A stretch of DNA of 64,000 nucleotides from a virus (IMGVR_UViG_2912874417_000004:32001-96000), one strand, 5' to 3'; counted from the first letter of the stretch, positions 12,719 through 44,380 are shown. Made by a program: numbers and translations. The notes: generated by a model from the letters alone, not told the origin.

Positions 12719-12830
12719 ACCTAATTCCTCCTCTGAGTGTTTTAATAATATTACACTCAGACATTACCCCAAAAATATCCATATAAATCACTTTCTATTT
12801 AATTTGTTTTCTTTTAAACTACAGTTTTAT

Positions 12831-14573
12831 TTAGACCACAATATCTCCTTCTGCAGTCTTCAGAGTTCCACTATCATATGTGTTATGAATTAAGGTTGTA
12901 TTCTTTGCTTTATCTGTGCAATACGGGTGAGATAATAACTTACCTCCAATTCCACGCGTATCGTTTCTGACGAGCCGTACCTTGTTTGTATTCTCTAAAT
13001 AAACACCATATCCTTGATCTGTTGAACGATTAAACATGATCTCATTATTGTTTAACATGTGTTCTGAACCACCTGTCAGGTGGATAGCAATCAATGACTT
13101 ACAGAAATAAATCTGATTCTTACTGATCTGACAGCTGTATTTCTCGGATGTACCTTTGATTGCAACATTTCTTGGATTATGAATTTCATTTCCGTTGAAG
13201 TACACTTCAGAATCCTTATCCCAAAAGATGCCGTATCCACTTCCGCTTAAGAATAAGTCATTCAACTTTAAACGAACTGATTGAGACCTCTCACAGTAAA
13301 CTCCCCCGTGCACATTTGCAAATTCATTAATAGCAAAACTTACACGGTTAGAATCCATGATTTTAATGGCATAAGCAGATGTTGTATTTCCCCCTTTATT
13401 ATTTGTAACTCTCACATCTTTTGAGTTTCGCACTTGAACTTGTATACAATCGCTGTTTTCAATATGATTATTCGAAATAAAAACATCTTCTGCTTCATGT
13501 GTTGCAATCGGACAAGCCGTTATGTTTTCAAGTATATTGTCCATTACATCAATCCCTTTACCTCTTACACAAATGCCTATTTCAAACCCTCTTACAGTGT
13601 TACCACTGATTTGTACTCTATTTCCTGACTCCGTGCTTGAAACACCCACCGAGTCAATTCCATATTTCTTGGATTTTCCCTTATTAATAATCTTGTTGTC
13701 CTTAACACTGACATCCGTGCTATATCCATAGGAAATAACATGGTCACTGTAGTTTCCTTCAATAATTACCTTGCCGCTTGTGTGCGCTGTAACGGATCCA
13801 CGTCCATTGTTTTTAAACCTGCAGTTTCGCACAGTTAATTTATACGGGTGATCGTATTTAATTCCGTTTTCTCCAAAACCCTCTAAATCAATTCCTAATT
13901 GTGGCCCAATTGTATCTCCTCCAGCTTCTTCTATATCACAGTCATCGACAAGAAGACCTTCACAACCATTGGTAGCCAGATTATTTCTTCTTCCTCTTAA
14001 AAGCGTACACTTTCGAACGGTTACATTCTTTGAGGGCGTATATGTTCCTGAAGTGTTCATCATTCCATCAGCCGCTATCCAAATGTTGTCTCCAATACAG
14101 TCAGAAACTTGTACATTTTCAATTAGCACATTGCTACCTCCATTAACATGGATACCAAAGCCCCATTCATGCGTCTTCTTAATTGAGGTAATTTTTGAAT
14201 AATCATGCTCATGTCGATCCCCAATAATTTGACCGCCACGAATCGTAACATTACTTGCTTGGCCGATATAAAAACAGGAGTAACCCTGATAATCATTTGG
14301 CTGCACTTTAAATATAGCCTCTGGATGAAGTATTAGCTCAATATTCGAAGGAACATTGATACCTCCACCGAATTCAGGTAACCGCTTTGTTGTATTCACA
14401 GCATCGATCAAATAGATACCTTTTGGAATATGTACTTTATAAAATGATTTTGAGCTTGCGTATTCTAAAGCTCGGTTTAATCCTTCTGTTGTTTCAATTG
14501 CATTTGACCCTTTATCATCAATTCCCCAATCCAGAGCATCAACAAAATAGTATAAGGGCTGTTGCATGTTCAT
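12831..14573 (-). CDS. yorA: Right-handed parallel beta-helix (pectin lyase-like) protein
   Basis: Repeating N/I/V-x-I-x-N beta-helix motifs; N-terminal IPKGIYLI. Confidence 0.85.
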   Translation of the reverse strand: MNMQQPLYYFVDALDWGIDDKGSNAIETTEGLNRALEYASSKSFYKVHIPKGIYLIDAVNTTKRLPEFGGGINVPSNIELILHPEAIFKVQPNDYQGYSCFYIGQASNVTIRGGQIIGDRHEHDYSKITSIKKTHEWGFGIHVNGGSNVLIENVQVSDCIGDNIWIAADGMMNTSGTYTPSKNVTVRKCTLLRGRRNNLATNGCEGLLVDDCDIEEAGGDTIGPQLGIDLEGFGENGIKYDHPYKLTVRNCRFKNNGRGSVTAHTSGKVIIEGNYSDHVISYGYSTDVSVKDNKIINKGKSKKYGIDSVGVSSTESGNRVQISGNTVRGFEIGICVRGKGIDVMDNILENITACPIATHEAEDVFISNNHIENSDCIQVQVRNSKDVRVTNNKGGNTTSAYAIKIMDSNRVSFAINEFANVHGGVYCERSQSVRLKLNDLFLSGSGYGIFWDKDSEVYFNGNEIHNPRNVAIKGTSEKYSCQISKNQIYFCKSLIAIHLTGGSEHMLNNNEIMFNRSTDQGYGVYLENTNKVRLVRNDTRGIGGKLLSHPYCTDKAKNTTLIHNTYDSGTLKTAEGDIVV

Positions 14574-15394
14574 GTTGTCAAACCCTTCCCTTCTACATTT
14601 TCATTGAGAAACCCTGATAGAGTGTCAATGAAGTTATAAAAGGTCTCATTTCTTGTACCAGAGCGTCCTTTCAGAGAAAAGGTGTTGAACATTGATTTGC
14701 GTAGTCCAGTGCTCAATTCCAGTTGAATGCTCTTTCCTGTTTTATTTTTATTGGCAACATTATTTGGACTGCTACCGGATAGCCTCGTACCCTCATCAAG
14801 AAGCTCTGCAGAATAGCCGGCATTATTTAATGTGCTTGTTATCGCTTCAGCTTTGTCCCGGTCTGTGCCGCCAACTAAAACATGTTGATCATTACTTGCA
14901 TAACCGTGAAGTGACAATGTGAACTCATGCCCCTTCAACATTTCAAGCGCTTGTGGTTCATCAAAATTCGTACTGGTTAAATGCAAATCAAAGGCTCCTG
15001 GTGTCTTTAAAGCTTCAAAAAGATATGTAGAGTATGTTTCGCTTAATTCCTTTGTAAGCTCGCTTGTTCCCCCTTCTATACCACCTCCATGGGGAGCAAG
15101 AATTAATACATCAGTGTCCTGCTCTTTTGAAAATATGCTAAAATTGAACGGTGATTCATTCGCTTTAAGCTCTTCAAAGTTCCGATACTTGTCCGCTGCT
15201 AAAATACTCACTGGATTCAAGGATGAAACCAAAGCTGTCACCAAAATTGGAAAAGTCTTCTTAACTGTGCTATACTTTAATAGCTTCGTAGTGATACGAT
15301 GCCTGCAGAGGAGGTGTGACCCGCCAAAGTTGCCCTTCTCTGCTCCTTTAATCTTTTTTAACAAATCCTCTATTCTGTTTTTAATCCTTAACAA
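14570..15394 (-). CDS. yoqZ: Poly-gamma-glutamate hydrolase (PghP/DUF867 family)
   Basis: APHGGGIEGGTSE, HLTSTNFDEP, LSLHG, IQLELS. Confidence 0.88.
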   Translation of the reverse strand: MLRIKNRIEDLLKKIKGAEKGNFGGSHLLCRHRITTKLLKYSTVKKTFPILVTALVSSLNPVSILAADKYRNFEELKANESPFNFSIFSKEQDTDVLILAPHGGGIEGGTSELTKELSETYSTYLFEALKTPGAFDLHLTSTNFDEPQALEMLKGHEFTLSLHGYASNDQHVLVGGTDRDKAEAITSTLNNAGYSAELLDEGTRLSGSSPNNVANKNKTGKSIQLELSTGLRKSMFNTFSLKGRSGTRNETFYNFIDTLSGFLNENVEGKGLTT

Positions 15395-15567
15395 TTAATA
15401 ACCACTCCTTTTTATTTTTGTTTTATTCTTAAAACTCAAATCACATAGGTAACTCACATTGTTATCACCCCCTTATAATCAACTTCATCTTTTTCAATTA
15501 CTTTTTCACATTCGCTGCAAAAGCAAGTAAACATTTTCACTCATCCTCTTTCTGTAAAATATCGTTT

Positions 15568-16008
15568 TTATTTAGACTCTATAAGCTCAGGATCTTCATA
15601 AATGTTGCCGATGACTTCTAAATCGACATTTGCTACAAATACAGTCATCATACCTTTATTGATTCGCTTGAATCTAAAACCTGGTACCTCTTTTGTCCAA
15701 TAAACTCCATCTGATGAATAATCAGCTACCTCTTCCTGCCAAAAAACTTCTAATAACTCATTTGAATATCTACGATGATTCCTTACAACGTCCCCCTCGT
15801 AAATCTCACGACCGTTTTTGTCCTTCAATCCGGTGTATTGCCCAACTGTTTCCGGCCTGACACTGTAAGCAAATGGAATACCAGCTTTATTAGAGATATA
15901 AGAACCAGATTCAATACCCATGCTCTTGATTCTTTGCTTAATGATTGATAAATTGCCGTAATACCATTCTCCGTTGATGCCCATTCCTCGAAACTTAATT
16001 TCCCTCAT
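15568..16008 (-). CDS. YopX-family protein
   Basis: MREIKFRG...GQYTGLKDKNGREIYEGD...EVIGNIYEDPELI. Confidence 0.9.
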   Translation of the reverse strand: MREIKFRGMGINGEWYYGNLSIIKQRIKSMGIESGSYISNKAGIPFAYSVRPETVGQYTGLKDKNGREIYEGDVVRNHRRYSNELLEVFWQEEVADYSSDGVYWTKEVPGFRFKRINKGMMTVFVANVDLEVIGNIYEDPELIESK

Positions 16009-16013
16009 TCTCC

Positions 16014-16220
16014 TTACCTCCCGTCCATTGGTCTAACATTTTCAAAATCCTCTATTTCATCAACATATTCAACGTATTCTATTTCGATATTTCCCGCGGC
16101 ATCTTCATGCACCCATACTTCCATTTCGGCTACCGCTTTCACTTTCGCTTTGTATCTCATTATCATTACCTCCATATTCAATTTACTTTTATCCTTATAA
16201 AATCTCTGTTTTATCTTCAT
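16014..16220 (-). CDS. Small hypothetical protein
   Basis: ORF with GGAGG RBS before internal Met (MIMRYKAK). Confidence 0.5.
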
Positions 16221-16503
16221 CGAAGTTATCTCCCCTCACTAACCACCATACACTTATTTTATTTTTATCAAATAAATCAATTATGTAAGACTCGTACATG
16301 TCATCCCAATAAGGATCAGTTCTCGCTATGTATTTCTTTACTCTTCCGTTCTCCTCAATCTTGAAGGTTTGCCCCTTTTGAATATCAGTAAACTTTTTCT
16401 TTCTCCAGATTCCTCTAATCAACACATCTACTTCTTTTACCTCAACTTTTTGCCGCTGCATAACATTCCTCCTTTTTGATTTTCGTGTATCAAGCCTGTA
16501 CAA
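16195..16503 (-). CDS. YoqX-like hypothetical protein (probable start 16461)
   Basis: AGGAGG RBS before [10 protein letters not shown]; adjacent to the SRAP gene. Confidence 0.55.
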
Positions 16504-16533
16504 TATTCAAAAAACCCTAAAGGATGATGAAAC

Positions 16534-17208
16534 ATGTGTGGCAGGTTCACTTTATTTTCTGAGTTTGACGACATCATCGAACAGTTCAATATAGATCAAT
16601 TTTTGTCTGAAGATGAATACTATCCAAGTTATAACGTTGCTCCTTCACAAAACATCCTTACAATCATCAACGACGGATCAAACAACCGTATGGGTAAGCT
16701 AAGATGGGGTCTTATTCCTCCCTGGTCTAAGGATGAAAAGATCGGCTATAAAATGATCAATGCTCGAGCTGAAACATTGGCCGAGAAACCTAGCTTCAGA
16801 AAACCGCTTGTAAGCAAACGCTGCATTATCCCAGCGGACAGTTTTTATGAATGGAAACGTCTCGATCCGAAGACTAAGATTCCTATGCGGATTAAGCTCA
16901 AATCCTCCAATCTCTTTGCATTTGCCGGCTTATATGAAAAGTGGAATACACCTAAAGGTAATCCGTTGTACACCTGTACAATCATCACGACAAAACCCAA
17001 TGAGCTTATGGAAGACATTCATGATCGGATGCCAGTGATCCTTACTGATGAGAACAAAAAGGAATGGCTTAACCCCAAAAACACCGACCCTGATTATCTT
17101 CAAAGCTTACTGCTACCGTATGACTCTGATGACATGGAAGCATATCAGGTTTCATCTTTAGTTAACTCACCTAAAAACAACTCACCGGAGCTCATTGAAT
17201 CCCATTAA
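16534..17208 (+). CDS. yoqW: SOS response-associated peptidase (SRAP/HMCES, abasic-site protection)
   Basis: N-terminal MCGRF, INARAET, FYEW, IHDRMPVIL. Confidence 0.95.
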   Translation: MCGRFTLFSEFDDIIEQFNIDQFLSEDEYYPSYNVAPSQNILTIINDGSNNRMGKLRWGLIPPWSKDEKIGYKMINARAETLAEKPSFRKPLVSKRCIIPADSFYEWKRLDPKTKIPMRIKLKSSNLFAFAGLYEKWNTPKGNPLYTCTIITTKPNELMEDIHDRMPVILTDENKKEWLNPKNTDPDYLQSLLLPYDSDDMEAYQVSSLVNSPKNNSPELIESH

Positions 17209-17277
17209 GTACCACAGTCATTTTGCTTTATATATCACCTTCGCTTAGCTATTATGTTCTAAGTAGGAGGTGATATT

Positions 17278-18090: not shown

Positions 18091-18465
18091 TCTCTCCGTT
18101 ACATAATTCCTTAGTGACTCGCCATTACACACCAAATGAAAATTTAGTACATGGATCAATTAGATAATTTATCGTTAAAATAACTATTTTATTTTTATTC
18201 ATAAATAATCACCAAATGTCATAGCCTACAAAATCATTCAAAAAAATTCGTCATTCCCTCATCCTCTTCTACTGTCAATCCATATTCATCAAGCCTGCTT
18301 AAATAATCTTCTCGTTCTTGTTTGATCATTTTTTCACCTCTTTTTTATTTTTTTCAATTCTTTTTTGATTTTCATATTGCTTTTCACTCTTTTATTAATA
18401 GATGCGTGTCATACACATGCCATCTAAGAGAGATAGGACATTTTTGTCTCGGGAGGTGAAATGCA

Positions 18466-19118: not shown

Positions 19119-19158
19119 TTCGTTTCCTCCTAATAACTGATTAAAAATTATCTTTTAT

Positions 19159-19467: not shown

Positions 19468-19478
19468 TTTCCCACCCC

Positions 19479-20003: not shown

Positions 20004-20329
20004 TCGTTTCCTCCTATTCTGTTTAAAATCACGATTTTATGTAGACTAAACCTTTTTCTTGCTGTCATGCGTTCACACTTTTGGGTAAAATACTAATCTG
20101 TTAACATTAATAACTCATCAACTTTATAATTGTATTCACCGTATTCACCCGATCTCCATTTAACACCTACAGTGCCTTGATTTGTCACCCACAATATAAT
20201 TCCCATTTCCCCATTTTCATGCCATCTTACTTGCTGCCCTTTCTGATAACCAAGCATGTTTCCACCCCTTTCTTAAAAAGCATTTTAATTTAACTTTAAT
20301 GTGTATTGCCTTGAGAAAATCCCCTTTAA

Positions 20330-20990: not shown

Positions 20991-21177
20991 TTATTTTATT
21001 TTTATCCTTTAAATATTTATATGTATTCCATCCGCAGCCATCAAATATGCTTATATCCGCTCCAAGATGCCATCTAAACCAAACTAAGTTAAACCAAGCT
21101 GTATCAATTATGTGCTTTAAATAACCTATATGCCTTCCTCCTTACAATGAAATAATCCTTTTATTTTGTTTTTTTTA

Positions 21178-22065: not shown

Positions 22066-22121
22066 TGAGTTTTTTGAAATTGACTATCGGTTCTCACCCT
22101 TTCTTTAAAACAGTCTTTTTA

Positions 22122-22397
22122 TCATTCTTTATCACTTAAATATTCTAAATACCTAAGATGTTCAAAGAGTTCTTCATCTCTATATGCTTGAATTGCATCT
22201 TCAAGTTTAAACGAGTGTTTTATTTTTCTGCTCGTGGCTTCTGTAAATAACCTAGTGATTTTACCTTCATCTAGATAACTATGATAGCCACCACCATTAC
22301 AAAGAAATCGAAGTATATTCTTTAAATACCGATCAGATATCTGATCAACTGTGTAGGTATTATAATTTTTATCTATCCAGTCGTATTCATTTCTCAT
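22122..22397 (-). CDS. Hypothetical protein
   Basis: ORF track. Confidence 0.6.
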   Translation of the reverse strand: MRNEYDWIDKNYNTYTVDQISDRYLKNILRFLCNGGGYHSYLDEGKITRLFTEATSRKIKHSFKLEDAIQAYRDEELFEHLRYLEYLSDKE

Positions 22398-22440
22398 ATT
22401 TTTGGTTATCCCAGTCCTCCTTTTGATTAAAACTTCAATT

Positions 22441-22764
22441 TTACCTATCTCCTAAAATGGTTTTACACCACTCGTTTATATCTGTTGAAATCTGATCAAT
22501 TTCAAACAACTTATCCTTTAGCATTTCTTCACCGTCTGCTCCATTAAAGCTTGCCAATCGTTCAAGTTGCTTTGAATAGTGCTTAATCTTTTCAATGCTT
22601 AATTCTAAATCCAAGGAACCGTTTTTAAGTTCAACCTCACCCATGTACTCCATTGTTGAACGAGTCCCGCATATTCCACAAAACGCTCTCTGTCTCTTAT
22701 AAAATTTATCAATAATAGTGGTATGGCCGCAGCCAGTTCTGCAAATGTGCTTGTAATGTGTCAA
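22441..22764 (-). CDS. Zn-ribbon hypothetical protein
   Basis: CRTGC...CGIC. Confidence 0.6.
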   Translation of the reverse strand: MTHYKHICRTGCGHTTIIDKFYKRQRAFCGICGTRSTMEYMGEVELKNGSLDLELSIEKIKHYSKQLERLASFNGADGEEMLKDKLFEIDQISTDINEWCKTILGDR

Positions 22765-22811
22765 AAAATCTCTTCCTTTCTATTCCAATGAAATTTTACT
22801 TTTAATCTAAT

Positions 22812-25010
22812 TCATCTTGTTTCCTGGGCCACAGTTTCTTTTTCAAAATCGTTTCTCAATTTGATAATGGAGGTTGATTTTAAATACCCTCTGTCCTTTG
22901 TCTTAGCCCATGCGAAAAATCTATTGTGTAAAGGAGTATAAAGGCTTCCTGTGTTAACCATATGCTCATGTTTGTTGCTGATCTTATGCTTTAATCCCCT
23001 CATTTGTTTCCAAAAGTTATAGTAAGGGAGCTTAAGTTTTGTCATGAAGCCGGCAGCATCTTCAATTACATAACCCTCTTCCTCAATTGAAAAATCTTGT
23101 GACACGTCCAGATACCATCTATAGAAATCTGTCCATTTACTAAACTCTGCAACTTGTTTTTTACACTCAATGTTTAGATGCTCGGCTACAGCTTTCAATT
23201 CCCAATAAGGAAGTTTTGTATACGCAACCTGCCTTTTAACAATATCTAAAAGCACCAGTTTATCTTTGTCGTATTCAATGATATGCGGGTCTTTTTCTGG
23301 AAATATTACTTCAAAAACGAATGAAACATTGTTAAGCTTCAGGTAAGTTTTGATAAAAGACACTTGATTTTCATTAAAAGATTTAAAAAACAGTTCTTCG
23401 ACCCATTTCGCATGTTCATTTGATATTTGTGACGTAAAGGATTTAGAAGTGAATACCAACTGATCTGACAAAGAGTCATACCCTACAGTTCCTAAATATC
23501 CATTTGCCTTATCGAAGACTGTTACTGGAAATTTCATCGTATCTACGAGATGATGCATTCTTGTTTCAGATCGTTCTCCAATGTTGAAAAATTTATCATA
23601 GCTTCTGCTTACAATTTCATTGCTCTCAGTGTTAATAAACAAACCTCTTGCCTTAATATTTGTTTCATCCCACTTTTTCTTTCTAAATGCTTGCTTTGTA
23701 AAATTAAATGATGAGATATTGTTTGGCATTTTATTCTCTTGCACATATTCATGACCACGTAAGTGGGAAATCAATTCATCAATTGTTCCAACAGTTGCGC
23801 TGTTACTCGGTACTTCACTTGAAATTTGTTTAAAGACTTTATTCTTCACTTCATGCGTTTCAATTCCGTTCTCAGACAGTGTAACGACTCTAAGATGCCC
23901 TCCTCTTTCCACTTGCCCTTCCAGGTTATATGATCTATCTGCTGCTACCACAGGTAGACGGTACATGTTTCTATGTCCATGAATCTGTACAACATTTTGA
24001 CCTGCAGTATTATTTGCAAATTCATAATCAATATCGTCTGAATAATCTCCAACTCCATTGATGAATTGTGTTGTTGCAGTCATCAAAAGATTTTCTGGTA
24101 CGGTTGAAACTCCGCCATGGGTTACAATGTATGTAGTGTTTTTATATGTAAAGTAAGCTAACTGATGAAACTTCCTGGCCAACTGTCTAATGTCTTTTTT
24201 ATCAATGTTGGATTGTTCGATTTCTGGCTTAGTTTTGTTGTTAAATGTGTTGCTAGGTGTTTCTTCATCATTCCCATACATATTGATATATCTATCATGA
24301 TTTCCTTCGAGAATAATCACATTTTTATAATCTTTAATTTTGATCATGAATTCTAACAGCTGTGCATTTTCAATACCTCTGTCGATAAGATCTCCTACAA
24401 AAATGTATAGTTCATTTTCATTCAAATCACCGTTTAAGTACTCTTGAAGCACAGTATTACACCCATGAACATCTCCGAAAATATGGATCTTTTTATAATC
24501 GTCAAAACATCTCGGCTTATAAGTCATCGTGGTTTCAAACTCATCTGGTTTTAGAACAGTTACCCAAGATGGCACTTTTTCTGTTGTCATTCTTTCATAA
24601 ATATTTAGAATACTGCTTTCAGGAACATGTTTATGTTCAGCCCTCATTTTATTTCTTTTTAAGATTCTCCGAACATCCACATCAGAAAAATCAACTACAT
24701 ATACACGGTATCTATATTTTTGAGCTAGTGGCTTATATCTTGAAATCATGCTTTGCTTTGAATGAGTTGCATCGATAATTGTGAATTCACCGCGATCCAT
24801 CCTATCTTCAAGCAACTTTAGTAATAAATCCCACACCTTGTTGTCGTGTTTTGGAGAGATTTCATATTTTCCACTTTTGTTTAATACAGGTGACTGAAAC
24901 AGCAGTCTAATGTTGTCTGCAGAAAGAGTGTACTGCTCAAGTCCATTTTCCTTAATCCAAGTTGATTTCCCCACTCCTGGACAGCCTCTTAATAACACTA
25001 ATGTTCTCAA
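22812..25010 (-). CDS. Polynucleotide kinase / metallophosphoesterase / RNA ligase fusion (RNA repair)
   Basis: GCPGVGKS P-loop and IIDATH; GDVHG, GDLIDRG, GNHD, THGG, HGH; ligase KANG, EGYVI, KLK. Confidence 0.88.
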   Translation of the reverse strand: MRTLVLLRGCPGVGKSTWIKENGLEQYTLSADNIRLLFQSPVLNKSGKYEISPKHDNKVWDLLLKLLEDRMDRGEFTIIDATHSKQSMISRYKPLAQKYRYRVYVVDFSDVDVRRILKRNKMRAEHKHVPESSILNIYERMTTEKVPSWVTVLKPDEFETTMTYKPRCFDDYKKIHIFGDVHGCNTVLQEYLNGDLNENELYIFVGDLIDRGIENAQLLEFMIKIKDYKNVIILEGNHDRYINMYGNDEETPSNTFNNKTKPEIEQSNIDKKDIRQLARKFHQLAYFTYKNTTYIVTHGGVSTVPENLLMTATTQFINGVGDYSDDIDYEFANNTAGQNVVQIHGHRNMYRLPVVAADRSYNLEGQVERGGHLRVVTLSENGIETHEVKNKVFKQISSEVPSNSATVGTIDELISHLRGHEYVQENKMPNNISSFNFTKQAFRKKKWDETNIKARGLFINTESNEIVSRSYDKFFNIGERSETRMHHLVDTMKFPVTVFDKANGYLGTVGYDSLSDQLVFTSKSFTSQISNEHAKWVEELFFKSFNENQVSFIKTYLKLNNVSFVFEVIFPEKDPHIIEYDKDKLVLLDIVKRQVAYTKLPYWELKAVAEHLNIECKKQVAEFSKWTDFYRWYLDVSQDFSIEEEGYVIEDAAGFMTKLKLPYYNFWKQMRGLKHKISNKHEHMVNTGSLYTPLHNRFFAWAKTKDRGYLKSTSIIKLRNDFEKETVAQETR

Positions 25011-25058
25011 ATTCTATCAACCTTTCTGATTTTTATTTGTTTAAAATGCATCTTTTAA

Positions 25059-26261: not shown

Positions 26262-26294
26262 TACTTTTCCTCCTTATTTAAATTCGAATAAAAC

Positions 26295-26519
26295 TTACAT
26301 TTTATTTTTATCCTTAATATATTCATGCTGATTCACAACATCACGAAGTATGTATTGTATTTCCTCTAAATTGTCTTTAACAAAGTCCAGGTCTCCTATT
26401 GCCATTCTGATTTCATTATTCTCTATGCTGCGCAAAGATCTTTCGCATGATGCTAAGAGCTTTTCATATTTCCTTAAAACCATAGTTCTTATTTGATCGT
26501 TAATTGGTTCATTAATCAA
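26295..26519 (-). CDS. Hypothetical protein
   Basis: ORF track; first gene after an SPBRE-associated promoter. Confidence 0.6.
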   Translation of the reverse strand: MINEPINDQIRTMVLRKYEKLLASCERSLRSIENNEIRMAIGDLDFVKDNLEEIQYILRDVVNQHEYIKDKNKM

Positions 26520-27853: not shown

Positions 27854-28837
27854 TTAAGAATTAGTCTCAATTACTTCAGACTTGATACAATATTTTTCTA
27901 AGTTCTCCATATTCACTACTTTCCTCAGTGTTTGTGAATTAAACTCCGCGTCTTCATTCAAGAACCCATATTGTCGAGTTATTTGCTTATAATCAGGTAC
28001 TTTTAATTCACCCTTCTCTTTATATATCGCATACGCCATGTTGAGCTTTCCTGAATTGATAAGATTTTTAGGTGTAAAGAAGGGTTCTTCTAAAAATTTT
28101 TGAAACTGACTAAAAGAACGATGAACTAAAAATTTGTCAGCTTTCATACTCTGATTAGAGCTCTTATATTTTAGCCTAAAAATATTTTCGCTTTTAACTA
28201 ATGTGGCAAATTTGTTTTTAAGGCTACTATCTGGCGAACCATTGCTAAGATGATATGTTCTTTGGTCATTAGCACGCTTAAGTAACTCATAACATTTATC
28301 GCTTACAGTAATTATTCTTACACCATGTTTATCATCTACTAGCTTTACCTTGTTATCATCGAGTAAATCGTCACCTGTTAAATTCAGTAACTCTGAATGC
28401 TGATAACCATCTATACCTTCATAAATAGCCTGTATCATGGCCTTATCCTGATAATTAATCATAAAATCAACATACTCTTCTACTTCTTTATTGGTGAATA
28501 GTGTTTTTTTGTTTTTATCTATAAACTGCTTTAAGTCACCATCCTGTATCTGATACACTTTGTTGATGTTACTGTTTGCCAAGCCATTTTCCATTGCCCA
28601 GGTTGTGTATTGTCCAATTACAGCTCGTGCTCCTCTTAATGAGTCTATAGATTTGCTATCCAAATCGAAAAATAACGTACGCAGCTCTTCCAAAGAAAAA
28701 TTAAATATGTCTTTTTGAAGTATTTTTTCTGTAGCTGAGAAATCCCTTAGCCTTAGCCAATAATGGTTTCTTGTTGCTTCACTTTCGTATTTCTCTAAAA
28801 ACTTTTCCTTCAATTCAGCATTATATATTTCACTCAT
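27854..28837 (-). CDS. yopR: Master repressor MrpR/SroF (degenerate tyrosine-recombinase fold)
   Basis: 327 aa, last gene of the sro operon; lacks the canonical R...HxxR...H catalytic set. Confidence 0.85.
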
Positions 28838-28857: not shown

Positions 28858-30207
28858 TTAAACAACAGCAATTTCATCATAAAACATTCGCTTAAGTTTC
28901 TTCTTCATAATATTCTTTAGTTGATTCTCATTATTTTGTCTTCCTAATTCTTCAAACACTCTTCCGCTTTTACTAAAGTCAATCGTATTAAGGATATTTT
29001 CAAGCTTGTTTAGTTCTACATTGTTTTCCTTCATCTTCTTGGCCAAATAAACATAACCGTAAAACATTACGTTATGATTAATGTATGATTGCTTTCTAAT
29101 GGACGATAAATCATCTTCAAGAAATTCGTCTGGGAAGGCATAAAAAAGGTTATCAAAAAAGTCTACCAAGTATTTCGCAATTTTCAACGCATCTTTTCGA
29201 GATTTCAGCTCAAATGCATCGTCTACAGCTTCTGATAAAGTATAATATGTTACAAGGAAATTGCTATCGATACCAATTTCACTTTGTGGGCTTATTTTAT
29301 TTTTAAGTTCACTTTTAAATTTCAGCTGCTCGACAACGGTTGAAGAATACCGTTTTTGTCCCAATTCTTCAATTCTGGATTTTTCAACTGGGTTTATGGT
29401 ATTCATTTGAGCAAAGTGAACCTTAGCCTTTTCTTCATCGTAATTGAGCACATTTAAAATGAATGGTTGATCTAATTCAGGGACTTCAGCAATGGCCTTA
29501 ACAATACCTGAAATTCGATGATATCCATCAAGAGCATCTAATAAGGTTCCTCGTGTTACAGTGAGGGTTTGGTCGCTTGGATCATATTCAACTTCTTCAT
29601 CACCATCAGATGTTCCAAGACGAGCGTTAAAAGTTAACATTGATACAATTAAATCGCCTTTAATAAACAATTCTTTGATCTCGTCAACTGATTTAGGGTT
29701 TGTTTTAGGTACAGGGATAAGGCTGCCCTTAATGTATTTTCCTTCACGCTGAGTATTGTAATTGTACTGCAGGATGGAGCTATTATATAACTCACTAAGT
29801 TCCTTGGCAGTAATGGAAGTGACATAGTTATCCTCTTTAATTTTAATCACATTTTTGAACTTGTATGGTAGCTTAACTACTTCTTCACCGGCGAATACTC
29901 TCCCACCTTCAAGCTCTTTTGCCAATCTGGTTGGAAAATAATTTGAGGGATCTAAAGCTGGAGCCCCAAGAATTGAATACATCTCTTTTGAAACAATGTA
30001 CACTTCTTTTTCGTTTAAACGCTGTACGTTGTTATCATTATTATTTAAAATTTCTTGGATATAACCAGGGAGTGCCTTGTATTTGTCCGCCATTGTGGCT
30101 TTTAATTCCTTCACCATATTGGAATCACTTTTAATATCAATAAGATTTTTCTCTATTTCAGTTTTTAACTTATAAAGTTTATCCGTTGTTAACAAAACTT
30201 CAGACAC
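28858..30207 (-). CDS. yopQ: SroE/YopQ, DGQHR/DndB-like domain protein
   Basis: DALDGYHR motif; position in the sro operon. Confidence 0.8.
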
Positions 30208-30283: not shown

Positions 30284-31342
30284 TCATTTGTTCAAAAACA
30301 TTTTAAGTTTATTCTGTATATACATGTCTGATTTTAAAAAGAATTCTTTATATTGCTCTAAGGCAACATCGTCTAAAAAGGACATGTCTTCTTTTTGATC
30401 AACCAAAACCCCTGGATCTTGAGAATAATCCCTTTCATTGACTAAATAATGATCATTTAAAGTATTGATATTGCTGTGGCCAGAGAACGCTGCCACTTTT
30501 TTAATATCACCATTAACGCTGTAAGAAAAGTTTGTTGCAGTATTGCGTAAACTATGCGGAGTTATCTTTCTTTCTTTGGGAATACCCATAACTCTACATA
30601 CGCGATTCCACATATCCTGTATTGAATCAACTGTTAACTTATGAAATAACAGTTCATGCTCCCCATACTCTTGCTTTAACAGCAACAACTCTTCATAAAA
30701 AGCAGTGGAAATCCCAACTGGCCTAGCCTTTTTTTGCTTAGTTTTTTTAAAGTTGACGAGATAGCATTGGTGCTTTTCTGAATAAGTAATATCATCCCAC
30801 CCAACTCTAAGCACCTCTGATTTACGCCCACCAGTACGTGCACTAAACAAAATAAACATCTTTTTCATTAATCTGTTCTGACGCTCAGTAACATAAGCTG
30901 CCTCAGCAAACTCATCAGCTTCCGATATTCCTTCAAAAGACCCTGCTGGGTTCTTTTCTGTCGGAAGAGGTCTAAAATTAAATACAGATGAATCACACTC
31001 ATGTTCAGATTCAAGATACTTAATCATGCTTTTCAGTGCGGCAATCTTATTGTTAATTGTTGAATTGGAGTTGCTTTTATTTTTAGCCAAATGGGTTCGA
31101 TAATCATACAGGTCGCTCTTCTTGATCGCCAGGTCACTCTCAGTTAAATATTCAATATCCTTGGCAGCATAGTGGTTGAAAAACTCTCTTATATGCCTTT
31201 CATACGTGGCTCTAGTATTAGACTTTTCAATTTCTCCAGTTTCTCGATCCCTGTTTCTTAAATCTAATTCATCAAACCACCTATTTATGTTATTGTATAT
31301 TGAATAATCCCTTAGTGTTGACGCTTTCTTTTGAGCTTCCAT
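30284..31342 (-). CDS. yopP: SroD/YopP tyrosine recombinase-like protein
   Basis: TGGRKSE, HSLR, SGHSN...HY catalytic-type motifs. Confidence 0.85.
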   Translation of the reverse strand: MEAQKKASTLRDYSIYNNINRWFDELDLRNRDRETGEIEKSNTRATYERHIREFFNHYAAKDIEYLTESDLAIKKSDLYDYRTHLAKNKSNSNSTINNKIAALKSMIKYLESEHECDSSVFNFRPLPTEKNPAGSFEGISEADEFAEAAYVTERQNRLMKKMFILFSARTGGRKSEVLRVGWDDITYSEKHQCYLVNFKKTKQKKARPVGISTAFYEELLLLKQEYGEHELLFHKLTVDSIQDMWNRVCRVMGIPKERKITPHSLRNTATNFSYSVNGDIKKVAAFSGHSNINTLNDHYLVNERDYSQDPGVLVDQKEDMSFLDDVALEQYKEFFLKSDMYIQNKLKMFLNK

Positions 31343-32606: not shown

Positions 32607-33752
32607 TCAAATTGAAATAAGACTTAACAGTTCTGTATCTGCACCCATTTTTTCAAGCTCAATCAATGGTAATTGAATTGAATATTTGTCATCTGATTTT
32701 TTGAAACTGTGTATAGATTTATAAAAATCAGATTTATCTACAGATATTAAACCTCTATAATAAAAATAAAATCCCTTCTCATTCTCATCTTGTTCTCTTA
32801 TTGATAACTCATTTAAAATCTCATTAGCCTTATCAACTTCACCTTTTCGTATATAATGGTATGCTCTCAATTGCAAGTATTTAGTATTCTGTGATTCATA
32901 ATTCACCCAAAAGTTCTCTTTATTCCAAAAGCTCGCAAGAAAGCATAATGCTCCGTCTAGCATCTCCTTGTGAATTGTATTACTTGCATACTTAGCACCG
33001 TTAACATATGATTGCTTAGCCTCTTCAAAATTTTCAAATATAAAAGAGTTCCCGATTGTTAAATATGCAAAAAAACAAATCCTGTCTATGTTTGTAGTTT
33101 CAGTTGCATTTAAACAATATTTTCTTGCTTCAATTAAATTGTTTTCATTGAAACTTATATTTGCTTTCAACAAGCTTACTCTTGAGGTGTATAAATCTTT
33201 TATGTAACCGTCTGATAATTCTTGAAAATCCAGCAATTTTGCTGTACTTTTCATTAATCCAAATTCACCAATTTTCAGGTATTCATACATTAGCATCGCA
33301 TTTGAGAAAAATATCATTTCTGTTGTTTTGCATTTACCAGTTTCCCTGATTGCTTCAGTTAAGGATATCTTGTTTTCGGTTAACTTTCTATGTATATTAT
33401 AGGTCTTACCCCATTCTTTGCTTGTCGCATTTTTCGAATTGCATAAATTTAAAATTATTTTATCAGTTAATGCATTCCACTGATTTATATCTGCATATTC
33501 AACAGATTGTCTAGCACATTTTTTATTGGGATCCAATGATAAGAAATAATCACTTAGAAGTTGCTCTTCATCATCAGGAAACAAGCTTTTAACAATATTA
33601 ATTAAACCGCCTAAGTTGTCCATTTCTTTCTCTGGGGTGTTGATGAATTTGTAAAAGCCATTAACCTTTTCGTACCCTGCTATTTTTGAGAGTTTCGCTG
33701 CGAGCTGGTTGTCTTTTTCACATTCATTCTTAATCATCTGCTTAAGATTCAT
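32607..33752 (-). CDS. aimR: Arbitrium receptor (RRNPP/TPR)
   Basis: 381-aa helical-repeat protein directly upstream of aimP. Confidence 0.93.
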   Translation of the reverse strand: MNLKQMIKNECEKDNQLAAKLSKIAGYEKVNGFYKFINTPEKEMDNLGGLINIVKSLFPDDEEQLLSDYFLSLDPNKKCARQSVEYADINQWNALTDKIILNLCNSKNATSKEWGKTYNIHRKLTENKISLTEAIRETGKCKTTEMIFFSNAMLMYEYLKIGEFGLMKSTAKLLDFQELSDGYIKDLYTSRVSLLKANISFNENNLIEARKYCLNATETTNIDRICFFAYLTIGNSFIFENFEEAKQSYVNGAKYASNTIHKEMLDGALCFLASFWNKENFWVNYESQNTKYLQLRAYHYIRKGEVDKANEILNELSIREQDENEKGFYFYYRGLISVDKSDFYKSIHSFKKSDDKYSIQLPLIELEKMGADTELLSLISI

Positions 33753-33907
33753 TGGTTACTCCACCCCTTCCCAACTAATGTTCCCTTGTTTATAATATAC
33801 ATTAGAGTTGTCAGAATTACAAGTATTTATTTTATTTTTATTCTAATTATTTTTTTGGTATCCTTCTCTGTTTAAAATTCGTATTTTATTTAGACCGCAG
33901 TGAGGGG

Positions 33908-36785: not shown

Positions 36786-36827
36786 AAGTCATCCTCTCCC
36801 TCATTGTGCATTTATGATTTTTCACAA

Positions 36828-37379: not shown

Positions 37380-37481
37380 TAATTCACTCCTTCATATCTA
37401 CGTTCTAAACACGTTTTCATGTTCTGATGATTGTTTTTCGTTCCACAGTTGTCTTAGTTCCACATAAAAGAATGATTTTAT

Positions 37482-38082: not shown

Positions 38083-38193
38083 GTTTTCTCTCTCCTATTC
38101 CATGTGAAAGTACGATTTTATAAAAATAGCCTGCAATTCTCTTTCATGTCTACTGCAGGCTTCTGTAAAATTCTCACTTAGTTCTGCCCTAGT

Positions 38194-38430: not shown

Positions 38431-38487
38431 TGTTTTTTAATGTTTCCTTAACTTGTAACTTTAGTATATCATGATCCCTAAAACGGA

Positions 38488-38751: not shown

Positions 38752-38762
38752 ATCGGAAACAT

Positions 38763-39008: not shown

Positions 39009-39068
39009 TTTAAATTATCACCATATGCATAAAAAAGGTCAAGGATATACCTTGACTATGTATTAAGC

Positions 39069-39506: not shown

Positions 39507-39585
39507 TTCCCCTACCCCCTTCTTCCAAATTATACTACATCCAAAAAGGGGGCGGTCTATATCATGATGTCATCATTGAGATTTT

Positions 39586-39918
39586 TTATTCTACTTCCTC
39601 TGCGCCATATTCAATAAAAGACTCAACATCTTCTTCGTACTCTGCAATGGCTACTTCTTCCGTTAAACCTTCTTGCTGCATTCTTTCTTCAACACTTAAT
39701 ACTCTGCAAATCACTTCGTAATCTTCAAACGTTTCAAAGGCTTGCTGCCTGGCAATATTAATAGCCTCGTCATAACTGTCAAAATCAAAAGCTTCTTCAT
39801 CTCTTGTGATATCGTTAATTGAACCGCCCACACCATAGAAAAGTTTATATTTTGTCATGTTAACCGCTCCATTCGATAATTTTATTTTTATCTTGTAAAT
39901 TAAGTATACACCGAACAC
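39586..39918 (-). CDS. Acidic hypothetical protein (probable start MTKYKL)
   Basis: ORF after a TTGACT-17-TATACT promoter. Confidence 0.6.
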   Translation of the reverse strand: MFGVYLIYKIKIKLSNGAVNMTKYKLFYGVGGSINDITRDEEAFDFDSYDEAINIARQQAFETFEDYEVICRVLSVEERMQQEGLTEEVAIAEYEEDVESFIEYGAEEVE

Positions 39919-40335
39919 TTTAAATAGTCAACCTATTATTTTATATTTATTCCTTTTTTTAAAACTCCTAATTTTTAACGCCTTCTGGCTGCAATTAAAA
40001 TAATTGCATCTTAAAAACCATCCCATTATATTTTTATACATTTGTCCTTAATGCTTCTTTTCCATGGTTAATATCGACACTTAGCCTAGAAAATGAAACT
40101 TCTTCTTTGTCTTTATTCTTCATGATATAGCTAGATATATATGTATCTATGAATATCTACGTGTATTTATAAGTATCTACATTTCCATATATCACACAAT
40201 TATACCTTATTGAGAACAAAAATATTTATTTTAGTTCATTTTTAAGAACAAATCTTCCATTTTTATGATATAATCATCACTGCTTATAGGCAACCTTACT
40301 GCTTATTCGCCATATGGTATAGGAAAGAGGTTCTT

Positions 40336-41430
40336 TTGATGAACGTAAAACATTCTAACTGTTTCTTTGTTATCAGGCTGGTTGCTGCTCTTTGTGTGCT
40401 TATTGGTCATGCTACAAGAGATTTAAACATTTCTGTCTTTGGTTATTCCCCAGAGAGTAAAGCAATATTTCACACCGGCATATCAATTTTCTTTTTTCTA
40501 AGCGCATTTTTTCTTTTCACTTCCTATGAAAGATACAAGACCAAAGGAAACAACGTAATCGATTTTTATTGGAGCAGAATTATAAGGATCGCACCCGCAA
40601 TATACACCTATGCTATTGCCTCCACTGTGCTGCTAATTGTTCTGGGAGCTCTTTCATTAACGGTATTCACTGCTAAAGAGTACTGGATATGGCTTCTGAG
40701 CAATCTTGTGCTATACCCTCAATACTTCCCTGACATATTCCATCATATTGGCACAGGTCGCCTTAACGATTCACTTTGGACAATTCCTGTTCAGATTAGC
40801 TTTTATCTTGTGTTACCCGCAATTTATTGGTTTTATAAACGTTTCGGATTTAAAAAAATGATTCTTTGCTCTTTTGCTGTTTCCGCTTTCGGTGTGTTGG
40901 GTTCTTTCATATTATTAAAATTCGCACCGGGAAGTGTGTTCGGTAACCTGTACTTACATTCATTCCTGCCGCAGATGTTTTATTTCACTTTGGGAATCTT
41001 CTGGGCTAAGGTATGGAGCAAGTTACCGCAGCATATCGTTTTATTTTTATGTTCTATTATTTTATTTTTATTCTTTAAATTTGACCTTCTATATCTCAGC
41101 TCAATAAACAGCACATTATGGAGCTTTTTATGGTTCATTCCCTTGAGCTATGCAATCATTTGGTTCGGGTACAATGGGCCGAAGATATTTTGGCAGCTGA
41201 ACCGGTTAGATGATATCAGTATGGGGATTTTCATATGGCACATGGTGATCATCAACATCTTCTTATACACTGGAATTAATGAAACATTGTCTGATTACCC
41301 GCTGATTATAGTTCTAATTGCTGTTACTGCTGCATCCGCATTTCTTTCTTACAGAATAGTGGAAAAACCCGCTCTTAAATTACGTAATATCAAGAAAAAC
41401 AAACCGGTCAAAACAAGGATTGCAAGCTAA
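40336..41430 (+). CDS. Acyltransferase family 3 (OafA/YrhL-like) membrane O-acyltransferase
   Basis: IRLVAALCVLIGH, FFFLSAF, RIIRIAP, SLWTIPVQISFY, SMGIFIWH, SYRIVEKP; about 10 TM. Confidence 0.88.
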   Translation: MMNVKHSNCFFVIRLVAALCVLIGHATRDLNISVFGYSPESKAIFHTGISIFFFLSAFFLFTSYERYKTKGNNVIDFYWSRIIRIAPAIYTYAIASTVLLIVLGALSLTVFTAKEYWIWLLSNLVLYPQYFPDIFHHIGTGRLNDSLWTIPVQISFYLVLPAIYWFYKRFGFKKMILCSFAVSAFGVLGSFILLKFAPGSVFGNLYLHSFLPQMFYFTLGIFWAKVWSKLPQHIVLFLCSIILFLFFKFDLLYLSSINSTLWSFLWFIPLSYAIIWFGYNGPKIFWQLNRLDDISMGIFIWHMVIINIFLYTGINETLSDYPLIIVLIAVTAASAFLSYRIVEKPALKLRNIKKNKPVKTRIAS

Positions 41431-41436
41431 CCGCAA

Positions 41437-41460
41437 GGGCTGTTCTTATGTAGGCAGCCC
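41437..41460 (+). terminator. Hairpin after the acyltransferase gene
   Basis: GGGCTGTTC...GGCAGCCC. Confidence 0.5.
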
Positions 41461-41519
41461 GAATCCTGTTTAGCATGAAATGGTGTTTTTATTCAGAGTC
41501 TTGGGAACAAGAACTATTT

Positions 41520-41635
41520 CCCGCTCAATTTCATCTTTGTATAGCTTTTTGACTCTCGGATAATCACGATCAATATATCGGACGCTGGTCTTCATTTGTC
41601 TAATAGCGGGCTTAAAATTTGTATAGTAATTTCAC
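41520..41635 (-). pseudogene. Degenerate YopB-like HTH gene relic
   Basis: Frameshifted VKLL/TNFKP...SVRYIDRDYPRVKKLYKDEIER aligns by eye to the 38763 protein. Confidence 0.5.
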
Positions 41636-41797
41636 GCCTTAGTTATTTCCGATCACTTTTAACGGTCATTAAGTTTACAATAATGACAAAGGCTTTTTAA
41701 TTTCATGACCCTGTTAAAACATTAGATAGAATAATTATCTGAGTCTCAAACCCAATAGTTCATTAGGTTCTCTTATGAACTCCATGGTTGACTCATC

Positions 41798-42715
41798 CTA
41801 TTCTTTATACTCTTTTTTAATTACTTCACCTTCAGTACTGAAAGTCCACTTATCTATGTCTTCTTTGAAAATAAGTTTGTCAATAGTGCCATCAAGCACT
41901 TTAAATACCATTAAAGCTATCTTCTCGCCTACACCAATGATATTTTCCTCAACAACTAAACTAAAGGATTGTTCATAATTGAACCCCTTAATCCCAATGA
42001 GATTACCGTCTTGAAGAATATATTTTAAATCATCGAAAGGATGAAAACCCTTAATTTTGCAATTAGAATTTTTGTTTATATTTAAATTTCGAAAAACAGG
42101 CTCTAACACCGTTTTATAATTATCTTTGCGGTTTCCTTCTTTATCATAAAAATATGAATCTTTCGCACTTACACTTTTTGGTTCAGAACAGCTTTTTGGA
42201 GTATGAGCTTTAATCTTGTTACCAGTTGGTACAAATTCTATAAGCGGTGTATTTGGTACTACTATATTCATTTTTAAATGAATATTTTTTATCCTGCCTC
42301 CCCAATCAACTTCGCTAAACTCTCCAAGTAAGGCTAACTTTATTCCTTCATCTTCAGCAAAGTTTCTAGCCTCTCTTGTATACCCAACCGTGGTAACGAT
42401 AAACGATTCGTCTGGTTTAATTTGCGAAACCGCTCCAAAGAAATCTCTTACAATACTTATACCCACTTTTTTATTAATATCCTTACATTCAATCAGGATT
42501 CTTTTAGATTTCTCTGATCCTTTAGATTGGACGGTAACATCTATTTGATGTGTTGTCTTTTTCTCACCCCCTCTTAATTTCAAATCATGGATTACTACAT
42601 CTTTTTGATGCAATATCTTAAATACCATCGCAGCAAGTTTTTCATATTTAGTACCTAGCTTTAGTTTTTCATCTGCTATATGTTCATTATAAATAAGTTC
42701 CATTCCTTCATCCAT
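41798..42715 (-). CDS. Mrr-like restriction endonuclease (PD-(D/E)xK)
   Basis: YE...QIDV...ILIECKD...IVTTVGYTREA. Confidence 0.8.
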   Translation of the reverse strand: MDEGMELIYNEHIADEKLKLGTKYEKLAAMVFKILHQKDVVIHDLKLRGGEKKTTHQIDVTVQSKGSEKSKRILIECKDINKKVGISIVRDFFGAVSQIKPDESFIVTTVGYTREARNFAEDEGIKLALLGEFSEVDWGGRIKNIHLKMNIVVPNTPLIEFVPTGNKIKAHTPKSCSEPKSVSAKDSYFYDKEGNRKDNYKTVLEPVFRNLNINKNSNCKIKGFHPFDDLKYILQDGNLIGIKGFNYEQSFSLVVEENIIGVGEKIALMVFKVLDGTIDKLIFKEDIDKWTFSTEGEVIKKEYKE

Positions 42716-43050
42716 CTTGATTCATCCCACCCCATGAGTAATTATGTTACATTATATACCAATATCAAACAACTTCAAACACTAATTCCTTGAGCTTCTA
42801 AGCCACCTCTATTATGTTTAAAATTCTTTTCTTTTAAACTGCTGTTTTATTAAAGGTGTTCATCAAAGTTTTCTACTATAAATGCGCTTTCACCCTTTTC
42901 CTAAACTCAATAACTTATTTAGATAAAAACAACATACTGAACAAGCATTTTATATTAAGATATGTATACCTGTCTTTCGTTATTATATGTAAAGTTTTAG
43001 CTTAAATTAATATTTCCGAATTATAGTTAAAAATAATTTTATAGTATTAA

Positions 43051-43078
43051 AAGGGAACAGTTGTAGCTGTATCCCTTC
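43051..43078 (-). terminator. Terminator of the 307-aa gene
   Basis: AAGGGA-ACAG-loop-CTGT-ATCCCTT hairpin with a T run on the minus strand. Confidence 0.6.
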
Positions 43079-43091
43079 GGTCAATAAATCT

Positions 43092-44015
43092 TTATGATGG
43101 ATAAGAAATGAAAGTCCAGAAATTACCTAATATTAACGGGTCATTGCGATCATCGCTCCAATAAATCCAAGCAGCTAGGGTACTATCTTCTCTTTGCTTC
43201 GTATAGGTTAGGTCAAATTTTGTATTTGTATTCCCTACACTAATTGTTTGATTGTTAGACCCAATAATCTGACCTGAAAGATCTTCCTGCAAAGCAATAA
43301 TAACTGTTCGAGAGGCACCTTCAGTCCTTATAGTAGGTAAGAATCTATAATTCCCAGTTTTCCCTCCCATCGAGTAGTAAACATAATGATAATCTTGTTC
43401 TGGTTTTGTACTAATCATGTAAAGATCATAGTCCCATGATTGATTACTTGTTCCTTGTCTATATTCTAATTTTACATCTGCATCTCGATTTTTCCAGTTT
43501 CTGTCGAACACTCGAATATCTGGGACACTTACTCCAGCTAGTATTTTATCGATATATTGTTTTACATCACTAGGTGTTCCAACATATTCTATCACTGCCT
43601 CCACCGTAATCCGGATGTGTGCACCTGCACCAAATTGTTCTCCTCTAGCTGTTGCATTTCCTACAATTCTTCTTCTCAAGACTTGGTATTCCTCAACTTG
43701 GCGTCTAATATTATTCCATCTAGAATCTAAATCTACTGTTCCCCATATTTTAGCATATCTCCATTCAACATGTGCTTCTAGATTCCCCCTTATATCTTCC
43801 GTATTAATTATTCTATAACCTGCAGGTGCTGTCCCAGTGCTCGCTGTTGCGATTCCTCTGTTAACCTCCGTTATTTCTTTATGATTTATTAAAATGTATC
43901 CTTCTGGCGGTTCATATTCTTTAGAATCCCTATCTGTTGTCGGCTGTGCCCCTCCTCTCGCTTCAGCATCTAAAGTAAAAGCAGTTACAGTTTCTCGATG
44001 TCCAATTTCAGGCAT
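43092..44015 (-). CDS. Uncharacterised beta-rich protein
   Basis: 307-aa ORF, AAGGTGA RBS, own terminator. Confidence 0.7.
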   Translation of the reverse strand: MPEIGHRETVTAFTLDAEARGGAQPTTDRDSKEYEPPEGYILINHKEITEVNRGIATASTGTAPAGYRIINTEDIRGNLEAHVEWRYAKIWGTVDLDSRWNNIRRQVEEYQVLRRRIVGNATARGEQFGAGAHIRITVEAVIEYVGTPSDVKQYIDKILAGVSVPDIRVFDRNWKNRDADVKLEYRQGTSNQSWDYDLYMISTKPEQDYHYVYYSMGGKTGNYRFLPTIRTEGASRTVIIALQEDLSGQIIGSNNQTISVGNTNTKFDLTYTKQREDSTLAAWIYWSDDRNDPLILGNFWTFISYPS

Positions 44016-44380
44016 ACCTAATCACCTTTCTAAATGTTCTTAGGTATTTTATTCAAATTGAATTCGACTGTTACATTTTTATGTGAATTCCTTCTCCGTA
44101 TAATACTTTCTCCAAACCCTTTTCAAATTTATCCTGTATTTTCAGTCTCCACCCACTTATGCTAATTTAAAAATGATTTCATAGCTAAGTCCCTTTTTAC
44201 AAAATAAATTCAATTGCTTATTCTGAGTTCATTACCTATCTTGATAAAATATGCATTTTATTTTATTTTTGCTCTTAAAATATGTATACTTCTCTGTTGT
44301 TTTAACTTGATTTAAGTATAGCATGACTATTTTAAATAATCAATAACTATTTTATTTTTATTCTCAAAGTGCGTATTTTG

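Follow-up and report, generated by a model that had tools for sequence, protein, structure and literature searches.

A strict two-fold symmetric DNA site at gene junctions of SPbeta-like Bacillus phages, and its possible role as an addressed joint for the exchange of gene modules

The stretch of DNA discussed here, called the window throughout, comprises 64,000 nucleotides of a virus (IMGVR_UViG_2912874417_000004), namely bases 32001-96000 of a 130-kb provirus record. The provirus belongs to the SPbeta family of Bacillus phages, its conserved parts being 82-85% identical to SPbeta, phi3T, SPR and the SPbetaL phages, and the minus strand is the coding strand for genes between 11 and 52 kb of the window. 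This region holds an arbitrium/repressor cluster made up of aimR (32607-33752), a gene for a YopP/SroD-like, Xer-type tyrosine recombinase with a Pfam Phage_integrase match (30284-31342, minus strand), a gene for a YopQ/SroE-like protein with a DndB domain (28858-30207) and a gene for a MrpR/SroF-like repressor (27854-28837). The element in question is a short palindrome, TAAAA-N6-TTTTA, with two constant arms and a variable six-base centre. It is real and strict, occurs family-wide at gene junctions, and is distinct from SPBRE, a repeated SPbeta element; a literature search found no paper describing it. The boundaries of phage mosaics are a long-standing question, and here a strict, countable DNA signal, with addresses conserved among relatives, stands at such boundaries in a model phage family with good genetics, that of SPbeta and phi3T in Bacillus subtilis.

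Exact copies of TAAAA-N6-TTTTA number 14 in the window, against 0.96 expected and a maximum of 4 in 100 dinucleotide shuffles. The excess is tied to the six-base spacing, as the other spacings between N2 and N11 yield 0-4 copies in the window, and in SPbeta 34 copies at six bases compare with 0-3 at other spacings; inverted, direct and shifted combinations of the arms are not enriched. In particular, 12 of the exact copies lie in junction DNA, which amounts to 9.4 kb or 15% of the window and is expected to hold 0.18 copies, and 2 lie in coding DNA (0.59 expected). An earlier, sequence-only reading of the window had proposed that the palindrome marks junctions of accessory genes, and this excess over shuffled sequence agrees with it; under the relaxed pattern of that reading together with its mirror image, junctions hold 19 matches against 0.73 expected, and coding DNA 3 against 2.5. 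All 11 exact copies that it had listed are present where it placed them, with three more found, at 16198 within the range that it covered and at 6701 and 51228 outside it, and its five one-mismatch copies exist as written. The stop codons that it had noticed beside many copies belong to the upstream genes, since the genes are on the minus strand.

The comparison with other genomes covers five relatives, SPbeta, phi3T, SPR, SPbetaL2 and SPbetaL3, which make six genomes together with the present provirus. The provirus has 26 exact copies and each of the relatives 30-36, as against 0-2 per genome for a back-to-front control motif. Across the six genomes, 160 of 196 exact copies (82%) fall within junction DNA, which is 13% of the sequence. 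One-mismatch forms as a class, counted over all arm positions in the six genomes, show no excess (224, with 235-332 at other spacings); a change is tolerated only at the second arm base, where variation is seen at junctions. Copies are sparse in the late operon, and some also stand behind promoters in 5' leaders, as at yosX, or behind terminators, as at aimR. The replication operon has none at its junctions, as had already been remarked from the sequence, the exact match at 6701..6716 being inside the replicative helicase gene and probably not a working site, given that both its flanks are homologous in all relatives. In a B. rugosus lysogen, whose genome of 4.5 Mb includes a prophage, the motif occurs 72 times and the control 40 times, a surplus that is due to the prophage. 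The lysogen chromosome thus carries the motif at background density only, which makes a host factor with a role throughout the chromosome, considered as the reader of the site, unlikely.

The 16-mer is the core of a larger dyad of 28 bp with two-fold symmetry and an 11-6-11 layout, which, oriented by the flanking genes, reads roughly TYTARA-TAAAA-K-N4-M-TTTTA-WNNARA. Its outer positions pair T at -6 (74-82%) with A at +21 (95-97%), C or T at -5 with G or A at +20, and T at -4 with A at +19, while within the centre T or G at the first base (5) stands opposite A or C at the last (10). This is the layout of a core site for a Xer/dif-type tyrosine recombinase, i.e. inverted arms of about 11 bp around 6 bp, here with the inner 5 bp strict. 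Of 107 non-redundant sites, 28 use the TAA of the left arm itself as the stop codon of the upstream gene; alternatively the stop is found 4 bases before it, and the downstream start codon mostly follows 15-35 nt past the site. In comparisons of the provirus with its relatives, identity is 94-98% in the arms, 84% in the centre and 81-83% in the flanks. Judged from sequence, the palindrome is best read as a DNA site recognized by a paired protein, with the arms under selection and the centre free; we infer a phage-encoded protein of the dimer type as the reader because the site is symmetric and strict and its arms are conserved. A repeated protein-binding site, which the sequence-only reading had named as its alternative, is compatible with what follows and probably also true.

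The centres follow the same order in different genomes. Namely, those at 44245, 25042, 22428, 22106, 19142, 18176, 15555 and onwards in the window are collinear with those at 69424, 86074, 87599, 88400, 92394, 92753, 95129 and onwards in SPbeta. That all centres in the window differ from one another, as the sequence-only reading had it, is true; that said, chance gives the same result, as only 0.5-1 identical pair is expected per genome, and uniqueness of the centres was accordingly rejected as a sign of selection.

When sites with the same centre are paired across genomes, the far side behaves in one of two ways: homology extends beyond 200 bp, or it ends 0-8 bp from the site, with few cases between. 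Among co-directional junctions, a homology breakpoint is found at 96 of 124 with the motif (77%) and at 99 of 352 neighbouring ones without it (28%); restricted to intergenic gaps of matched length (25-100 bp), the comparison is 60 of 81 (74%) to 38 of 104 (37%). The supposition that gains and losses of genes between SPbeta-like relatives break at the motif was borne out in this sense. What is more, when one flank is homologous and the other unrelated, the same or a nearly identical centre is kept in about 75% of comparisons, about 22% have no site, and 2 of 343 have one with another centre. This count was anchored on the one homologous flank using gapped alignment, so that the position of the site cannot bias the result. 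Intervals bounded by the same two consecutive centres contain unrelated DNA in 52 of 197 cases and only partly alignable DNA in 90, and the slot between centres GATGCA and GTAAAA is filled in four ways, by mutually unrelated stretches of 262-3597 bp. Turning to the neighbours, of the 32 centres that three or more genomes share, 19 have a minimum of two unrelated ones on each side, and four-gamete analysis of the 32 shared centres gives three combinations in 10 and all four in one (GATAGT). The sequence that swapped contexts have in common is the 16-mer plus one to six flanking bases only. Eight sites of the window, those at 18176, 19142, 20024, 22106, 22428, 22789, 25042 and 26289, have a relative whose homology ends 8 bp away or less, and in two near-identical prophages found through a distant YopP homologue (L040 and L041) the edges of differing blocks lie 0, -5 and -1 bp from sites.

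It is our belief, held with moderate confidence, that the palindromes are fixed, addressed joints at which SPbeta-like phages exchange gene modules through crossovers between copies of the same centre, the arms being read by a paired protein. Each genome keeps the site at some 26-36 junctions, most of them in the accessory early region, where it lies after the stop codon of one gene and before the ribosome-binding site (RBS) of the next; its arms are most likely read by a phage-encoded protein that binds as a pair. Each copy has its own centre, inherited in fixed order. When two SPbeta-like genomes meet in one cell, crossovers could then occur within copies of the same centre, with strand exchange presumably inside the site, and blocks between two such addresses would be exchanged with gene order undisturbed. 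In this form the system is best filed as a variant of gene modules bounded by recombination sites. Crossover activity at the sites, if real, would account for the free trading of early genes, including those for the counter-defence proteins Gad1 and Gad2, which are located in the same region in relatives; it would also give a function to the orphan recombinase genes of the family and offer ready-made landing sites for engineering.

As to the mechanism, we are divided roughly evenly between a Xer-like recombinase of the phage, of the YopP/SroD or YomM type, that would act on sites of the same centre, and annealing at short homologies by phage recombination proteins (the Sak4-like YorG, the RecJ-like YorK and the resolvase YotM). 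A more specific version, in which the system is a natural counterpart of recombinase-mediated cassette exchange, with a phage tyrosine recombinase serving some 30 sites of shared arms among which only those of the same address recombine, appears to us possible but doubtful; were it true, accessory genes, anti-defence genes among them, would be reshuffled at a high rate and their order would never be scrambled. The YopP-like protein of the window is a candidate for the reader or the enzyme. Its family counts 270 representatives at E < 1e-10, the residues R173, K202, H263, H289 and the nucleophile Y299 are invariant in 30 diverse homologues, and the nearest solved relatives are XerA, a XerC-like protein, XerD, IntI4 and XerH. 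The order aimR, yopP, yopQ, mrpR recurs, together with an unchanged palindrome, in loci where YopP is 30-40% identical. A second gene of the integrase family lies outside the window, in the late region of the provirus (108340-109356, plus strand; Pfam Phage_integrase, 82.8 bits), with R, HxxR, H and Y kept; its product is barely alignable with YomM, which SPbeta encodes at the corresponding place and which is 98-100% conserved among B. subtilis phages. The general recombination proteins are well conserved, with 95-100% identity for the Sak4-like YorG, and include the resolvase YotM. The YopP-like protein of the window is 98% identical to a Bacillus velezensis protein. One that is 99% identical is encoded on a 133-kb contig titled Streptomyces sp. 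(NZ_JBHVTC010000023.1), most likely a contaminating Bacillus phage or prophage within a Streptomyces assembly.

Several observations weigh against exchange at same-centre sites and should be set beside those in its favor. The far ends of replaced segments lie at the motif in only 18 of 128 cases, and several of the far ends are at conserved RBS-start sequences; tight gene packing alone forces many breakpoints to fall near a site. The centre is not conserved beyond the flanks (84% against 81-83%), and similar centres are not depleted within a genome. The genome pairs are kin, which makes the breakpoint and retention counts counts of non-independent events. In laboratory hybrids of phi3Ts and SPbeta, crossovers occurred inside kilobase-long homology and not at sites (bioRxiv 10.1101/2020.05.06.055103); because they lay in homology of such length, these hybrids are uninformative on the sites. 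As far as the enzymes are concerned, YopP is 30-32% identical and YomM unalignable between lineages, yet the site is invariant. In SPbeta (NC_001884), moreover, both YopP (yopP, 78691-79767) and YomM (yomM, 40301-41302) have HxxK where the consensus and the YopP of the window have HxxR, and this lysine in place of the second catalytic arginine bears on whether the two proteins still catalyse. Co-change of site and recombinase, a mark of Xer/dif-type systems, was looked for in the distant YopP loci and rejected, the site being unchanged there; by analogy with Xer/dif systems themselves, its absence need not exclude membership.

The strongest rival is a purely regulatory or architectural role, in which a protein binds the site as a stoperator-like block to elongation, an insulator or an organizer of the nucleoid, and no recombination takes place within it. 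Breakpoints would then coincide with sites for the simple reason that the site fills the short gaps between independently acquired genes and is kept there by selection. We regard this as unlikely, though it deserves to be taken seriously. The strict sequence, the conserved arms and the neutral centre are what one would expect of it, as are some 30 copies per genome placed in short gaps at a fixed distance before the next start, and also in the leader of yosX and behind the terminator preceding aimR; the tight packing of genes explains part of the sharpness of the breakpoints, and a second repressor, SroE, is without a known target (bioRxiv 10.1101/2025.11.27.690993). Such a role fits poorly, however, with the lack of sites at the junctions of the conserved replication operon and their scarcity in the late operon, and the length-matched control still leaves a twofold breakpoint rate. 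Furthermore, unrelated upstream genes all end a few bases from the same 16-mer, a site with a different centre almost never arrives, and one centre shows all four gametes. Finally, the peaks of the repressor MrpR in chromatin affinity precipitation with sequencing (ChAP-seq) are only at SPBRE promoters (PMC10516654). Should the role be regulatory after all, the sites would constitute an undescribed regulon of about 30 members in a model phage.

The relation to SPBRE calls for some detail. SPBRE is the operator of MrpR/SroF, a repressor with a recombinase fold (PMC10516654), and it resembles the palindrome in being a repeated intergenic element of SPbeta-like phages that is itself read by a protein of this fold. 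It differs in sequence, stands at about ten promoters, and varies with the sro type. Identity of the two was ruled out, as the regions upstream of ten MrpR ChAP-seq targets, including yorE, aimR, yonT, yonP, yonX, yorZ, yosX, yopV and yopM, share a different motif, about AAATACAAAWAATATGTATA. SPBRE has 9-11 copies in SPbeta, SPbetaL2 and SPR and 0-1 in the present provirus, phi3T and SPbetaL3, the latter three having another type of repressor (31% identity) and a repeat, AGARTAAAAATAAAAT, beside promoters. Thus the operator of the repressor changes with the repressor type, whereas the palindrome is identical in both repressor groups. The second repeat, abundant in phi3T, has about 20 copies in the provirus, often just upstream of sigma-A-like -35/-10 pairs; in the window its first bases, in gene orientation, are at 50315, 48024, 47945, 44364, 41074, 33844, 27819, 26604, 11030, 10592 and 5199 on the minus strand and at 53066, 53132 and 53352 on the plus strand. 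This repeat probably serves the phi3T-type SroF/MrpR repressor as operator, i.e. as the SPBRE of that immunity type. Two other candidates were also set aside: sigma-A promoters and intrinsic terminators both occur at the palindromes at chance level, and a YonO promoter does not apply, YonO initiating at one site upstream of yonK and transcribing late genes only.

The sequence-only reading had itself favored an integron- or Tn916-like mechanism, in which single genes travel as cassettes with their own sites and a recombinase tolerates different 6-bp cores. What stands of this is the likeness to tyrosine-recombinase sites, with two arms around 6 bp, and the bracketing of single genes by consecutive sites, which is correct for 22122-22397, 22441-22764, 22812-25010, 41798-42715 and 43092-44015. 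In one indel between L040 and L041 a gene is indeed lost along with a site of another centre, an event of a rare kind, and SPbeta 87599 and phi3T 80190 share the left flank and have different centres. What does not stand is the recombination of unlike cores, given the 2 replacements in 343 one-sided comparisons. The integron-like picture misfits because the centres belong to positions and not to genes, and because so few replacements have their far ends at a site; nor does the palindrome resemble attC in length or structure. We consider the mechanism very improbable.

An element acting in the messenger RNA (mRNA), be it a hairpin, a processing site or an intercistronic translational signal, would suit a site that lies in transcribed DNA between a stop codon and an RBS and is better conserved in its downstream flank, with A at +21 in 95%, than in its upstream one, but such an element is highly unlikely, seeing that the arms pair through A-U only with essentially no folding energy (on average -0.06 kcal/mol for the 16-mer and -1.7 for the 28-mer), that compensated arm variants are not in excess (94, against 68-93 at other spacings) and observed mismatches are not wobble pairs, that the outer triplets keep their sequence on either side, that an Rfam scan matched no family to the palindrome, and that promoter- or terminator-like features show no excess. 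An RNA hairpin in particular was ruled out by the negligible folding energy together with the lack of compensatory changes, and the asymmetry of the flanks is explained by the upstream flank being weaker where it is coding.

Returning to exchange at addressed joints, close counterparts are known, among them the pdif sites and dif modules of Acinetobacter plasmids (Mindlin et al. 2019, PMC6449649), where many 28-bp sites, with 11-bp arms around 6 bp, likewise flank variable accessory and adaptive modules. The pdif sites resemble chromosomal dif, have unlike arms for XerC and XerD, and use these host enzymes (PMC6449649); the palindrome, in contrast, has identical, AT-only arms unlike dif, a separate centre for each site in fixed order, and a phage as its carrier, the host chromosome being unenriched. 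Integron arrays are similar in having gene-sized units, a repeated site of recombination type, one transcriptional direction and a tyrosine recombinase gene nearby. However, attC measures 57-141 bp, is imperfect, works in folded single-stranded form and moves along with the cassette, whereas the palindrome is 16-28 bp long and strict, and stays in its slot; neither a site moving with the cassette nor an attC structure with paired R and L boxes was found. The PeSL cassettes of T4-type phages and the boundary sequences of lambdoid phages are also short conserved intergenic sequences at which recombination shuffles accessory genes, but they are promoter-plus-hairpin units or loose homologies without an address for each site, and the palindrome has no promoter or stable hairpin. 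In engineered exchange with heterospecific lox or FRT sites, where the enzyme is known, arms are identical and spacers different, and only sites with the same spacer recombine. Order is kept there too while the DNA between two sites is swapped, the spacer requirement being hypothetical in the case of the palindrome. Stoperators of cluster A mycobacteriophages, lastly, are asymmetric sites that point in the direction of transcription and bind the immunity repressor (L5 gp71). Like the palindrome, they are some 30 short, strict sites in short operon gaps, often touching stop or start codons; unlike them, the palindrome is two-fold symmetric, and the SPbeta repressor binds another element (PMC10516654).

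Going through the sites of the window in order of position, with centres given in gene (minus-strand) orientation, the copy at 12814..12829 has one mismatch (right arm TTTAA), lies at the stop of a gene for a 580-aa beta-helix protein and has no counterpart in the five relatives. The exact site at 15555..15570 (ACGATA) supplies with its TAA the stop of the gene at 15568-16008, and its centre recurs at SPbeta 95129. A further exact site at 16198..16213, absent from the earlier list, touches the stop of an open reading frame at 16195-16503. The homology of phi3T begins 1 bp before the exact site at 18176..18191 (TAGTTA), and that of SPbetaL2 stops 8 bp past the one at 19142..19157 (GATAAT); the exact site at 20024..20039 (TCGTGA) is common to SPbetaL2. 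At 21148..21163 there is a junction copy with one mismatch (TTTCA), likewise not listed before. The exact site at 22106..22121 (AGACTG) occurs in each of the five relatives and has neighbours of four kinds on the left and four on the right; together with the one at 22428..22443 (TTGAAG) it brackets a gene for a protein of 91 aa, SPbeta having unrelated DNA between the same two centres. The one-mismatch copy at 22789..22804 (GTAAAA) is the counterpart of exact sites at SPbeta 86886 and SPbetaL3 104878. All five relatives also share the exact site at 25042..25057 (GATGCA), where the homology of SPbeta, phi3T and SPbetaL2 begins 1-2 bp before the site, and another exact site is at 26289..26304 (TGTAAG). 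Upstream of aimR stands the exact site at 33873..33888 (TACGAA), whose centre is also found before aimR in the distant prophages L040 and L041. The exact site at 37465..37480 (TCATTC) is common to SPbetaL3 and SPR. Next come three one-mismatch copies, at 38105..38120 (TCGTAC; exact at SPbetaL3 90183 and phi3T 65259), at 41476..41491 beside a Mrr-like gene (no counterpart in the five relatives) and at 42834..42849 (CAGCAG; exact at SPbetaL3 88949); those at 22789, 38105 and 42834 share both centre and order with exact copies of SPbetaL3. The exact site at 44245..44260 (TGCATA) is common to SPbeta, SPbetaL3, phi3T and SPR, and the exact junction site at 51228..51243 lies beyond the range of the sequence-only reading.

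Some of the genes found in and around these slots are worth recording. The gene at 22812-25010 (minus strand) encodes a protein of 732 aa whose kinase-like AAA_33, metallophosphatase and T4-type RNA ligase domains form the layout of an RNA-repair enzyme. Its slot is occupied in SPbeta by unrelated genes, and the slots holding it and its neighbours in the window are the yoqD-yoqI slots there. In the stretch upstream of aimR, the near-identical prophages L040 (2039-4320) and L041 (2877-4296) have a SEFIR/TIR pair and a SMODS/SLATT pair, respectively, i.e. genes of defence type that alternate within the region punctuated by the palindrome. Further along the window, the minus strand encodes a protein of 534 aa (44381-45985) with a region like Dam-type N6-adenine methyltransferases and a DUF4942 domain, and on the plus strand a match to the SR6 antitoxin RNA (50034-50131; Rfam RF02892, 86.9 bits) suggests a type I toxin-antitoxin pair like yonT/SR6 of SPbeta.

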